Shown piece after piece: positions 32,651-35,349 of a DNA stretch of 64,000 nucleotides; position 1 is the stretch's first letter, and each line of letters starts with the position of its first letter. This DNA comes from Escherichia phage 92CQ: sequence record PV682554.1; one strand, written 5' to 3'. The notes under the pieces are model-generated. The model saw only the letters and a list, made by a program, of their open reading frames with translations, was not told the origin of the DNA and ran no database searches. Both the position numbers and the translations under genes were made by a program.

Positions 32651-33544
32651 ATGAAAGTTAGTATTCTGCATAGTGTTGACTGTTATGTTACTGATGTAGA
32701 CGTTAAAGTGTTTACATTCTCTGGTGGAGAACAACATGTTCAATTAGATACGAACCTGTCGGGTTTCAATCATGCTACAGACAGAATCTTACTCACTTTA
32801 GAAGTAAGATCTGCTAAAGACTTGATGACTTTGGTTATGACTAAGAATGCATTGGACAATATGCTATATCATAAACCATATTGTGTTGATTTACTCATGC
32901 TGTATGTACCGTATGCACGACAAGACAGAGTGTGTGAGCCTGGAGAAGCATTCGGAGTTAAAGCATTTGCTTCTATAATTAATTCATTAAATTTCTCACG
33001 TGTTATCGTTGCTGATCCACATAGTGATGTTACTCCAGCAGTGTTTGACAGACTCTGTGTAATACCTCAAGAAGAGATTGCTTACGAAACTTTAAAATGG
33101 AAGTTACGTATGGAGAATTTTGCTCTTGTTAGCCCTGATGGTGGTGCTCTTAAGAAAATATTTAAATTATCTAAGAAAATGTCTTTAGATGTGTTCTGTG
33201 CAGAGAAGGTTAGAGATACCGCAACAGGTGCTATTGTTCGTACAGACATTTCTGTACAGGATTTCAATAAGCGTAACCTGATGATCGTAGATGATATCTG
33301 TGATGGTGGTAGAACTTTTATTGAATTAGCTAAAGTGCTACGTGCTCGTAACGCAGGTAAGATTGAGTTGTATGTTACACACGGTATCTTTTCTAAAGGT
33401 CTTAAAGAGTTAAGTGAGCACTTTGACTGCATTCATTCCCTTAATGTGTGGGAAGATAACATCCAAGAAGATTCCGGTGTTCTTGTTAAGAATCAGTCAG
33501 ATTTGCAGCAACAAATTGTATCTCCATACGTGTGGAATTTTTAA
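32651..33544 (+). CDS. prs: ribose-phosphate pyrophosphokinase (PRPP synthetase)-like
   Basis: PRPP-binding loop LMIVDDICDGGRTF; AAGGAGA RBS. Confidence 0.7.
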   Translation: MKVSILHSVDCYVTDVDVKVFTFSGGEQHVQLDTNLSGFNHATDRILLTLEVRSAKDLMTLVMTKNALDNMLYHKPYCVDLLMLYVPYARQDRVCEPGEAFGVKAFASIINSLNFSRVIVADPHSDVTPAVFDRLCVIPQEEIAYETLKWKLRMENFALVSPDGGALKKIFKLSKKMSLDVFCAEKVRDTATGAIVRTDISVQDFNKRNLMIVDDICDGGRTFIELAKVLRARNAGKIELYVTHGIFSKGLKELSEHFDCIHSLNVWEDNIQEDSGVLVKNQSDLQQQIVSPYVWNF

Positions 33545-33554
33545 ATAATAAGTG

Positions 33555-33583
33555 TTGACAATAGGGAGTATGCTTAGTAAGAT
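33555..33583 (+). promoter_or_regulatory. sigma70-like promoter TTGACA-N17-TAAGAT
   Basis: TTGACAatagggagtatgcttagTAAGAT upstream of nadV. Confidence 0.45.
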
Positions 33584-33615
33584 ACTCCCACACTAACAAA
33601 CAAGGAGACATAACT

Positions 33616-35349
33616 ATGAATATTTTTGCACCTTTTGCTACTGATTGGTATAAACCTGGTCACAAGCAGATGTACAACCAAAATACAAAACTCATTTTCT
33701 CTAATTTAACTCCTCGTAATGATAAAAACTTTGCACACTATGCAGATCGTGAAGCACGTGGTGTCATTGTTTTAGGTATTCGTCGAGCAGTAACCGATGC
33801 TCTTGTAACTATGTGGGACGGCTTCTTTAAAATGTCTCGTAGTGCAGCAGTAAATAAATTTTATCGTATGTCTAAGAATGCATTAGGTGCTTCTGCTCCT
33901 TCTGCTGAGTGTTGGGGTGAATTGCACGATTTAGGTTATCTTCCGCTGGAAGTTCGATCTCTGCCGGAAGGTGTTTTGTGTCCTATTGGTGTTCCTGTGT
34001 TTACTGTGCATAATACTTTAGAAAAATTCTTTTGGTTAACTAACTATGTGGAAACACTGTTGTCAGATGAAACTTGGAAGACAATGACTAATGCCACAGC
34101 AGCTTTTCAGTATAAGCGTATCGCTATGGCATATGCGATGGCAACGTGTGATAATATTGATCACGTTAACTTCCAGTGTCATGATTTTAGCCTACGTGGT
34201 TTAAGTAATATCGAAGATGGTTATAAGAGTGGTATCGCTCACTTGGCATCGTTCACAGGAACAGATAATATTCTGGCTATTGAAACTGTGCATGACTATT
34301 ATGGTATTGATTATGATCAGTTTGTTGCAGGTTCGATTCCGGCAACAGAACATTCGGTAGCAACGACTAACATTGGAGCTATTGTTGAAGATCTGAAGAA
34401 ACATTTCCCACATCTTAAAGATGATGTAGATGGTCTTCGTTATGTAGCAGAAAAAGAGTTTCTTCGTCGTTATATCGAAGAAATTGTTCCAGAAGGTTTT
34501 TGTTCATATGTAGCAGACTCTTATGACTATTGGGCTGTATTGACTCGCATTCTGGTAGAATTGAAAGATTCCATTATGTCACGAAATGGTCGTCTTGTTA
34601 TTCGTCCAGATTCAGGAGATCCGGTTAAAGTTGTTGCAGGATACAATGTTGAATCTTTTGATAACTATGAAGACCTTTTAAATAATGGTATTGCGACAGC
34701 AACTGAAGTAGTTCATTTAGCTGATGTTAATAAGTATTACAATGTTCTTCAGGATTGCAGCGTTGCTGATTGTATTGACGAAACTTATGAGATTCCTTAT
34801 TGTGAAGCAGTAGGTTCTATTCAAATCCTTTGGGAAGTGTTTGGTGGTACTATCAACCGAAAAGGCTACAAGGTTCTTGATCAGCATATCGGTATGATTT
34901 ATGGTGATTCTATTACTGTTGAACGAGAACACGAGATCTTACGCCGACTGAAGAAGAAAGGTTTTGCAGCTTCCAATATTGTATTTGGTGTTGGTAGTTA
35001 TACTTATCAGTTCAATACACGAGATACTTTTGGCTTTGCTGTTAAAGCAACAGGTAGCATCATCGGTGAACACGAAATTTTGGTAAGTAAGGAGCCTAAA
35101 ACTGATCCTGGTAAACGCTCTGCAAAAGGTTTTATTAAGGTTGTTAAGGATACCAATGGTAATCTTTCTCTTGTAGATAATCTTTCTTTTAAAGATATCC
35201 AGGATGAAGACAATGAGTTACAAGTTATCTTCAAGGATGGTAAGGTTATTACACCACAAGTAGAAGGACGTGATGAAACATTCACTGATATCCGCAACCG
35301 TGTTGATGTAGAGGTTCTTCGTACTATGGGAACCATCCAGGTTGACTAA
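33616..35349 (+). CDS. nadV: nicotinamide phosphoribosyltransferase
   Basis: 577 aa; N-terminal FATDWYKPGHKQMY matches the NAMPT TDSYK substrate motif. Confidence 0.75.
   Translation: MNIFAPFATDWYKPGHKQMYNQNTKLIFSNLTPRNDKNFAHYADREARGVIVLGIRRAVTDALVTMWDGFFKMSRSAAVNKFYRMSKNALGASAPSAECWGELHDLGYLPLEVRSLPEGVLCPIGVPVFTVHNTLEKFFWLTNYVETLLSDETWKTMTNATAAFQYKRIAMAYAMATCDNIDHVNFQCHDFSLRGLSNIEDGYKSGIAHLASFTGTDNILAIETVHDYYGIDYDQFVAGSIPATEHSVATTNIGAIVEDLKKHFPHLKDDVDGLRYVAEKEFLRRYIEEIVPEGFCSYVADSYDYWAVLTRILVELKDSIMSRNGRLVIRPDSGDPVKVVAGYNVESFDNYEDLLNNGIATATEVVHLADVNKYYNVLQDCSVADCIDETYEIPYCEAVGSIQILWEVFGGTINRKGYKVLDQHIGMIYGDSITVEREHEILRRLKKKGFAASNIVFGVGSYTYQFNTRDTFGFAVKATGSIIGEHEILVSKEPKTDPGKRSAKGFIKVVKDTNGNLSLVDNLSFKDIQDEDNELQVIFKDGKVITPQVEGRDETFTDIRNRVDVEVLRTMGTIQVD

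Follow-up and report, generated by a model that had tools for sequence, protein, structure and literature searches.

Escherichia phage 92CQ carries two adjacent genes whose products resemble a phosphoribosyl pyrophosphate (PRPP) synthetase (Prs) and a nicotinamide phosphoribosyltransferase (Nampt). Does this pair, located in the 64,000-nucleotide stretch of sequence record PV682554.1 that was analyzed here (the window), provide a route to nicotinamide mononucleotide (NMN) via PRPP, as proposed in the initial annotation, or does it rebuild nicotinamide adenine dinucleotide (NAD+) by different chemistry? Our analysis makes it very probable that the two genes are adps and namat, i.e. a NAD+ reconstitution pathway 1 (NARP1) operon in a coliphage of the phi92-like group (Justusliebigvirus). 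The first description of NARP1 dates from 2024, and the structures of both enzymes from 2026. The pathway is operationally defined by a gene for a Prs-fold protein (Adps) and a gene for a Nampt-fold protein (Namat) within 10 genes of each other, typically adjacent and on one strand. The operons of Bas63, SPbetaL1 and ICP1 as well as E. coli prs served as references for direct comparison.

Locus and protein family membership

The list of open reading frames (ORFs), the strand layout and the GC skew bore out the position of the two genes (Table 1) and their description as the first plus-strand genes after a switch region. Every ORF to the left of adps, up to position 32241, lies on the minus strand and the sign of the GC skew flips near 32 kb, so that adps and namat are the first two plus-strand genes; the divergent intergenic region at the strand switch measures 409 bp. 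The two genes are plus-strand neighbors separated by 71 bp, and each is preceded by an AAGGAG ribosome-binding site 7-8 nt upstream. The DNA of this region is 98.9-99.0% identical to that of Escherichia phages KKE7M and JohannJBalmer, the latter being Bas62 of the BASEL collection (Justusliebigvirus, phi92-like, subfamily Stephanstirmvirinae). The region was matched over at least 80% of its length by 55 related genomes, and the entire window is collinear with EC_OE_11 (1-64000) and W22 (14861-78979). Phage 92CQ is a phi92-like coliphage of the genus Justusliebigvirus, and its Adps shares 99.3% identity with bas62_0248 and its Namat 99.7% with bas62_0249, with two differences per protein and none at functional positions.

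Homology checks using PHROG, Pfam and alignments to the Protein Data Bank (PDB) upheld the Prs-like and Nampt-like folds. The upstream protein matched PHROG 619 "ribose-phosphate pyrophosphokinase" (E 3.6e-91) as well as the Pfam families Pribosyltran and Pribosyl_synth, and alignments to PDB Prs structures covered residues 12-270, a full two-domain Prs-like fold. The reservation in the initial annotation that this protein might possess a PRPP-binding loop only was therefore not borne out literally, while its spirit applies, as by homology the protein would not be a PRPP synthetase. In blastp comparisons it was closest to ICP1 Adps (40.5% identity, 157 bits), followed by the Adps of Bas63 (35.8%, 137 bits) and SPbetaL1 (approximately 31-35%, 83 bits), and E. 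coli Prs (27.6%, 72 bits) scored below all three verified Adps. Curated NCBIfam models gave a corresponding picture. The score of 118.5 bits on the broad subfamily model TIGR01251 barely passed the cut-off of 113, compared to 423 for E. coli Prs, and this match was confined to profile positions 24-253 of 309. Every equivalog-level Prs model was failed (98, 98 and 78 bits versus cut-offs of 297, 296 and 322), as was likewise the case for the verified SPbetaL1 Adps, while E. coli Prs reached 533 and 423 bits on NCBIfam Prs models. With scores under the curated equivalog cut-offs, an assignment as canonical Prs was rejected. The alignment with E. coli Prs does not extend into the C-terminal 47 residues, which only suggests a loss of the PRPS C-terminal alpha11-alpha12 module.

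Closer examination of individual residues revealed that K186 (33206-33208) aligns with ICP1 K185 and SPbetaL1 K162, the mutation of which abolishes Adps activity (bioRxiv 10.1101/2024.02.11.579819; PMC13586617). Since the same lysine is also conserved in Prs, K186 is taken as a sign of catalytic competence and not of Adps specificity. In contrast, the surrounding hairpin motif K-x-R-[DN]-x-x-T-G-x-I is common to all four Adps sequences and is lacking in E. coli Prs. F23, R90, H124 and D163, which represent the acceptor residues, as well as D214, D215 and D218 match ADP-ribose (ADPR)-binding residues of ICP1, and Bas63 has the same pyrophosphate (PP) loop, CDGGRT. Judged by its sequence, the Prs-fold protein belongs with the Adps group and not with cellular Prs.

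For the downstream protein, the matching families were PHROG 448 "nicotinamide phosphoribosyl transferase" (E 2.4e-188) and, in Pfam, NAPRTase (E 6e-38). Its top PDB matches were 9W5X/9W5W, the structures of SPbetaL1 Namat (E 5e-118, 398 bits), ahead of all Nampt entries, with the human/mammalian Nampt entries scoring approximately 173 bits; 9ke8/9keo was the second-best structural relative. Identity amounted to 43.9% with Bas63 Namat and 45% with SPbetaL1 Namat (summed blastp bits of 382-396), compared to 27.9% and 136 bits with a T4-like phage Nampt. The catalytic core, for which SPbetaL1 D13, Y15, F189, R192, D215, the catalytic His, R306 and D308 served as reference, is conserved throughout (D10, Y12, F191, S192, R194, D217, H246, R330, D332 and G430-D-S432), with R330 corresponding to SPbetaL1 R306. 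The features that distinguish Namat from Nampt are found in the selectivity clamp, which is built up across a dimer with bound ligand. Its helix (SCH) follows the Namat-specific consensus GS-X-phi-X-phi-X-phi-TRD, in which X is aromatic (PMC12774641), and carries the aromatics Y462 and F466 at motif positions 3 and 7, similar to GSFTYQYNTRD in SPbetaL1. The corresponding stretches of Xanthomonas (Xcc) Nampt (GGALLQKVDRD), PDB 9ke8 (GAQTYQRNTRD) and T4-like phage Nampt (GGGLLQEVTRD) are without the clamp aromatics. In Namat enzymes, the clamp loop (SCL) is described as supplying a stacking residue, which is either Arg or follows a Lys/Tyr. In phage 92CQ this loop is longer than those of SPbetaL1 and Bas63, and K37 is its third residue, followed by N38 and F39.

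To investigate if the pairing of the two genes extends beyond this phage, IMG/VR was scanned with an alignment of Namat and the 80 best relatives, with 38-99% identity to the phage 92CQ protein, were analyzed. An Adps-like ORF was present on the same strand within 4 kb in all 80 of these loci, in most of them immediately upstream, and of those loci in which the clamp motif was read, nearly all had it in the G-S-aromatic form. The control query was a T4-like Nampt labelled "Nmnat-associated" by Osterman et al. In the six T4-like control loci no Adps-like ORF was present within 5 kb, and each of them carried GGGLLQEVTRD. A gene for NMN adenylyltransferase (NMNAT, Nmnat) was not found within 5 kb of the control locus, which is consistent with the "Nmnat-associated" label because that definition is genome-wide and does not refer to the neighborhood.

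Table 1. Coordinates and characteristics of features at the adps-namat locus of phage 92CQ and in its vicinity
Feature	Position	Strand	Remarks
adps ORF	32651-33544	+	ATG start, TAA stop, 297 aa, Prs fold
Adps catalytic beta-hairpin AEKVRDTATGAIV	33200-33238	+	contains K186
Adps DD plus PP loop DDICDGGRTF	33290-33319	+	residue mapping
namat ORF	33616-35349	+	ATG start, TAA stop, 577 aa, Nampt fold
Namat SCL region TPRNDKNFAHYADR	33709-33750	+	alignment; K37 at position of SPbetaL1 R40, Bas63 K42
Namat H246 in ATEHS	34342-34356	+	catalytic core
Namat R330/D332 in IRPDSGDP	34600-34623	+	catalytic core
Lineage-variable Namat insertion, aa 343-399	34642-34812	+	between R330/D332 strand and FGG helix
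Namat SCH G460-S-Y-T-Y-Q-F-N-T-R-D470	34993-35025	+	fits Namat-specific consensus
Candidate promoter, sigma-70-like, TTGACT-17-TAGAGT	32583-32611	+	9/12 consensus match, 40 nt upstream of adps
Candidate promoter, sigma-70-like, TTGACA-17-TAAGAT	33555-33583	+	10/12 consensus match, in adps-namat gap
AAA_33 kinase-like protein	27881-28285	-	RNA-repair-like cluster
T4 Rnl1-type RNA ligase	28286-29218	-	RNA-repair-like cluster
Metallophos_2 phosphoesterase	29220-29771	-	RNA-repair-like cluster
cREC_REC "cyclic-phosphate processing receiver" domain protein	30286-30660	-	RNA-repair-like cluster; E 3e-14

Predicted chemistry and competing explanations

The operon of a Prs-like and a Nampt-like gene was noticed in four BASEL phages by Osterman et al. 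(bioRxiv 10.1101/2024.02.11.579819), whose initial expectation was also the formation of PRPP and then NMN. Bas63 without the operon became sensitive to SIR2-HerA, its counter-defense was independent of the host genes pncC and nadR, and infected cells built up a new metabolite, ADPR-pyrophosphate (ADPR-PP). The purified Prs-like enzyme of SPbetaL1 converted ADPR and ATP to ADPR-PP and, when given ribose-5-phosphate as well (Fig. 2D legend), did not behave as a Prs, while the Nampt-like enzyme formed NAD+ from ADPR-PP and nicotinamide and preferred ADPR-PP over PRPP. The names Adps, Namat and NARP1 were coined in the same study, and counter-defense was reported for the operons of Bas63 and FADO and for a transplanted SPbetaL1 operon (all bioRxiv 10.1101/2024.02.11.579819). 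Enzyme activities have been reported for homologues from SPbetaL1, ICP1 and P. foliorum. The genes of the phage 92CQ lineage are not new to this literature. JohannJBalmer MZ501084_00232 is listed in Supplementary Table 1 as an Adps homologue ("Namat within 10 genes: Yes") and MZ501084_00233 in Supplementary Table 2 as a Namat homologue ("Adps-associated"), and genes of phi92 and PaulScherrer are also contained in these tables (bioRxiv 10.1101/2024.02.11.579819). With near-identical Bas62 and phi92 genes in published NARP1 tables, the phage 92CQ genes are already catalogued and the finding as such is already known.

If the phage 92CQ enzymes act like these homologues, from which their substrates, products and anti-defense phenotype are predicted, a host NADase effector would cleave NAD+ to ADP-ribose and nicotinamide, Adps would take the beta-gamma pyrophosphate from ATP and attach it to the 1''-OH on the terminal ribose of ADP-ribose, yielding ADPR-PP and AMP, and Namat would let nicotinamide displace the pyrophosphate of ADPR-PP to form NAD+ directly. 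ADP-ribose and nicotinamide are the very products of the SIR2-, TIR- and SEFIR-type NADase defense effectors. Since the products of these NADases would be the substrates of NARP1, the phage would be able to rebuild the NAD+ pool destroyed by abortive-infection systems such as SIR2-HerA, DSR1/2 and type I Thoeris, and go on replicating. An NMN intermediate, an NMNAT and a host salvage enzyme would all be unnecessary. The NAD+ restoration against NAD+-depleting defenses that was envisaged in the initial annotation thus finds support in homologous NARP1 operons, while the PRPP/NMN chemistry proposed for it is contradicted by the enzymology of these operons and by the sequence features of Adps and Namat.

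The same annotation regarded the pathway as incomplete, as no NMNAT was recognized in the window. This absence is real: neither an NMNAT nor a Nudix gene was detected by Pfam in the genes on either side or in the larger early-region ORFs that had no assignment, and no NMNAT, Nudix or Macro partner is annotated in the whole 98%-identical W22 genome, which extends the negative result beyond the window. It is, however, immaterial, because NARP1 does not use an NMNAT. By analogy, the two-gene pathway is to be regarded as complete without one, since Namat homologues make NAD+ directly from ADPR-PP.

Several observations weigh against the assignment as NARP1. The proteins are no more than 31-45% identical to the enzymes that have been assayed, function in the phi92-like lineage is assigned by homology, and no paper with experimental evidence for NARP1 in phi92-like phages came up in our literature search. 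The adenine-contact residue F92 of ICP1 Adps is replaced by Cys95, a position that is also not conserved in Bas63 (Met) and SPbetaL1 (gap). In the SCL, the residue after K37 is an Asn in place of the stacking Trp of Bas63, which makes one of the three clamp contacts uncertain. Namat furthermore contains two insertions relative to the crystallized SPbetaL1 enzyme, aa 253-282 (34372-34461) and aa 343-399, the latter of which is absent from the Namats of SPbetaL1 and ICP1 and longer in Bas63. In vitro, SPbetaL1 Namat can also convert PRPP to NMN if no ADPR-PP is offered (bioRxiv 10.1101/2024.02.11.579819; PMC12774641), and a minor Nampt-like side activity of the phage 92CQ Namat is conceivable by analogy.

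Regarding the insertions, the span between the RPDSG strand and the FGG helix ranged from 28 to 113 residues among the 80 IMG/VR Namat homologues, compared to 16 in the T4-like Nampt controls, and amounts to 28 residues in the crystallized SPbetaL1 Namat, 74 in phage 92CQ and 105 in Bas63. Because this site is hypervariable across the Namat family, the insertion after the R330/D332 strand appears to be a family trait that is not peculiar to this phage. The structure paper (PMC12774641) does not discuss this hypervariable site. Small variations such as the insertions and the gap with its promoter-like site leave the classification as NARP1 unchanged. A version that departs from plain NARP1 through altered donor specificity (e.g. 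for other defense-made ADPR derivatives) or an unrecognized third component or regulator is very unlikely in our estimation; it is brought up by the long-form Namat (57-residue insertion), the longer SCL with Asn, the separate promoter-like site and a conserved neighboring gene for a protein with four paired cysteines (Cys4).

A literal reading of the two genes as Prs and Nampt, with PRPP leading to NMN and a host or unseen phage NMNAT (NadR, NadD or NatV-like) completing NAD+, agrees with the names given by Pfam, PHROGs, NCBIfam and more than 50 GenBank records, as well as with the in vitro NMN formation by SPbetaL1 Namat mentioned above. These names carry little discrimination, however. None of the three databases has an Adps- or Namat-specific model, the relatives in GenBank all carry either the names Prs and Nampt or the label "hypothetical", and the verified SPbetaL1 Namat itself passes the NCBIfam "nicotinate phosphoribosyltransferase" equivalog cut-off, so that family models cannot discriminate between the two. 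Moreover, the Prs/Nampt expectation was tested and refuted for homologous operons (bioRxiv 10.1101/2024.02.11.579819), the Prs-like protein fails the equivalog-level Prs models and groups with Adps, and the Nampt-like protein has an aromatic adenine clamp that true Nampts are without. The scanned ORFs of the window and the W22 annotation hold no NMNAT or Nudix gene that could complete such a route, and Osterman et al. found no phage with both NARP1 and NARP2, the pathway that combines Nampt with NMNAT. Taken together, we consider the literal reading extremely improbable. NARP2 was likewise rejected, with no Nmnat found in the scanned ORFs or the W22 annotation, Adps present, the Namat clamp and only 27.9% identity to the T4-like Nampt.

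NARP1 chemistry could also serve mainly for housekeeping, i.e. the recycling of ADP-ribose and nicotinamide released by NAD+-consuming enzymes, possibly including a phage SIR2/CobB-like protein seen in relatives. The location of the operon beside nucleotide-metabolism, RNA-repair and tRNA genes would fit such a role, as would the SIR2-family protein (Pfam SIR2, E 1.5e-22) that relatives encode 2-3 kb outside the window on its left side (W22, 12010-12822; EC_OE_11, 142649-143455). In Bas63 infections, however, ADPR-PP was seen only with SIR2-HerA present (bioRxiv 10.1101/2024.02.11.579819). The SIR2-like gene is absent from the 64-kb window and widespread elsewhere (981 records in T5-, rV5- and phi92-like phages, T5 included) without specific linkage to NARP1, and T5-like phages are not among the listed Adps matches. 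A specific link of this gene to NARP1 was rejected on account of its wide distribution and the lack of a copy in the window, and a main role in housekeeping seems highly improbable to us.

Two related pathways were considered as well. NARP1-AP consists of NARP1 and a Macro-domain ADPR-1''-phosphate phosphatase (Adpp) encoded within two genes of the operon. A Pfam scan of the flanking ORFs with a permissive threshold of E <= 0.1 detected no Macro domain, and the annotation of relatives lists none either. NARP1-AP was rejected for lack of a Macro-domain gene in the flanking ORFs. NARP3 comprises a PnuC-like transporter and a NadR-like enzyme (PMC13464706) and was rejected, as PnuC and NadR were not detected in the scanned ORFs of the window and are not annotated in the collinear relatives or the whole W22 genome.

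The value of the assignment lies in the correction of annotation, since Pfam, PHROGs and NCBIfam still name Prs and Nampt, and these misleading names invite the false conclusion that an NMNAT is missing. For phi92-group phages considered as phage therapy candidates, resistance to NAD+ depletion of the SIR2, TIR and SEFIR types is predicted. These phages would, on the other hand, be sensitive to aRES-type defense, which makes ADPR-1''-phosphate, because no Adpp phosphatase is present.

Transcription signals and genomic surroundings

Each of the two genes had been assigned its own TTGACA-type promoter. This holds only as far as consensus matches go (Table 1), with TTGACA-17-TAAGAT before namat and TTGACT-17-TAGAGT before adps. 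A TTGACA hexamer does exist at 32373, but the -10 hexamer that a consensus scan pairs with it, TACCCT, is poor. Four copies of the pattern TTGAC-N18/19-TAAGAT are present in the window compared to 0.23 expected, at 12424-12452 on the minus strand and at 33555-33583, 35342-35370 and 35763-35792 on the plus strand. Three of these four copies immediately precede successive plus-strand genes that follow the strand switch, and the recurrence of the motif suggests a shared promoter class. Because no plus-strand terminator-like site was found between adps and namat, co-transcription of the two genes together with an internal promoter is plausible.

The possibility that the 409-bp switch region or the leader contains a regulatory RNA was considered and rejected, with only a sub-threshold Rfam match to GA-cis and folding z-scores of -0.25 and -0.02. 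This match at 32330-32445 on the plus strand (21.3 bits versus a gathering score of 34.7; E 0.37) is probably due to chance, since the folding energy was not better than that of shuffled sequence. The TTGACA hexamer in the same region is flanked by a 20-nt imperfect inverted repeat (32326-32345 and 32397-32416).

Immediately downstream of namat, a 73-aa ORF (35421-35642, plus strand) encodes the Cys4 protein with two CxxC pairs and a weak match to Pfam RecR_ZnF (E 0.004). It has its own TTGACT-17-TAAGAT site (35342-35370), which overlaps the namat stop codon. Homologues were present in the same position at 6 of the 80 IMG/VR NARP1 loci, two of which have a Namat with only approximately 55% identity (L015 and L017). 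The ORF is unannotated in EC_OE_11 and W22 and listed as "hypothetical" in Bas62.

The neighbors of the operon include nucleotide-metabolism, RNA-repair and tRNA genes. An RNA-repair-like minus-strand cluster is located upstream (27881-30660; Table 1), and a block of 16 tRNA genes (36097-38873, plus strand) follows just downstream. In this block tRNA-Ser(GCT) is present twice in identical copies (86/86) as part of a 247-bp duplication (36924-37170) of 36619-36873, and EC_OE_11 and Bas62 have a homing-endonuclease ORF where phage 92CQ carries this duplication. Further to the left, the minus strand encodes a MazG-like, non-Nudix nucleotide pyrophosphohydrolase (25103-25825; Pfam PRA-PH, E 3e-7) and, according to the annotation of collinear relatives, a four-gene block for dTDP-rhamnose biosynthesis (rmlA/B/C/D-like, 9356-12617).

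Comparison with known systems

The phage 92CQ proteins share with E. coli Prs and with human and Xanthomonas Nampt the respective folds, the catalytic-loop Lys, the Asp-Asp ribose contacts, the catalytic His of Nampt and the NMN-site residues. The canonical enzymes, however, act on ribose-5-phosphate and PRPP, in place of the ADPR and ADPR-PP used by Adps and Namat, N- and C-terminal segments of Prs remain unmatched by the phage Adps, and Nampt is without the adenine clamp. NARP2 (Nampt plus NMNAT, Vibrio phage KVP40 type) resembles the pair in employing one Nampt-fold enzyme and in restoring NAD+ under NADase attack. It differs by proceeding via PRPP and NMN, by its need for Nmnat, by having no Adps partner and by a Nampt without the aromatic clamp.

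Among the NARP1 systems, SPbetaL1 (Adps WIT26982.1; Namat WIT26983.1, structures 9W5X/9W5W; PMC12774641) has the same two-gene arrangement, the counterparts K162 and R306 of K186 and R330, and an SCH that reads GSFTYQYNTRD, compared to GSYTYQFNTRD in phage 92CQ. In contrast to phage 92CQ, SPbetaL1 Namat consists of 491 aa without the two insertions and its SCL uses Arg40 directly, the PP loop of its Adps reads SSFGGT instead of CDGGRT, and its genes overlap where phage 92CQ has the 71-bp gap with a promoter-like site. The closest experimentally characterized Adps is that of ICP1, for which structures and kinetics have been published (PMC13586617). All of its residues F18', R87, H121, D161, K185, D212, D213 and D216 are conserved in phage 92CQ. 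Differences concern F92 (Cys95), the PP loop (CDGAAS to CDGGRT), F223 (Glu) and a longer C-terminal tail in phage 92CQ.

Bas63 (JohannRWettstein, Felixounavirus; bas63_0079-0080) belongs to the Ounavirinae and not to the Stephanstirmvirinae like phage 92CQ, and with 35.8% (Adps) and 43.9% (Namat) the proteins exhibit only limited identity. It further differs in the Trp that follows the SCL Lys (Asn in phage 92CQ) and in the second insertion, which is approximately 31 residues shorter in phage 92CQ, and the NARP1 of Bas63 has been tested by deletion while the phage 92CQ lineage is known by sequence. Even so, both phages infect the same host species and have the gene order adps-namat on a single strand, with a short distance between the genes (45 bp in Bas63, 71 bp in phage 92CQ). 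The two operons have in common the PP loop CDGGRT, the catalytic Lys, an SCH of the type GSYTYQ[YF]xTRD, and a long-form Namat (593 aa in Bas63, 577 aa in phage 92CQ) with an insertion at the same site and an SCL beginning with TPRxDK.

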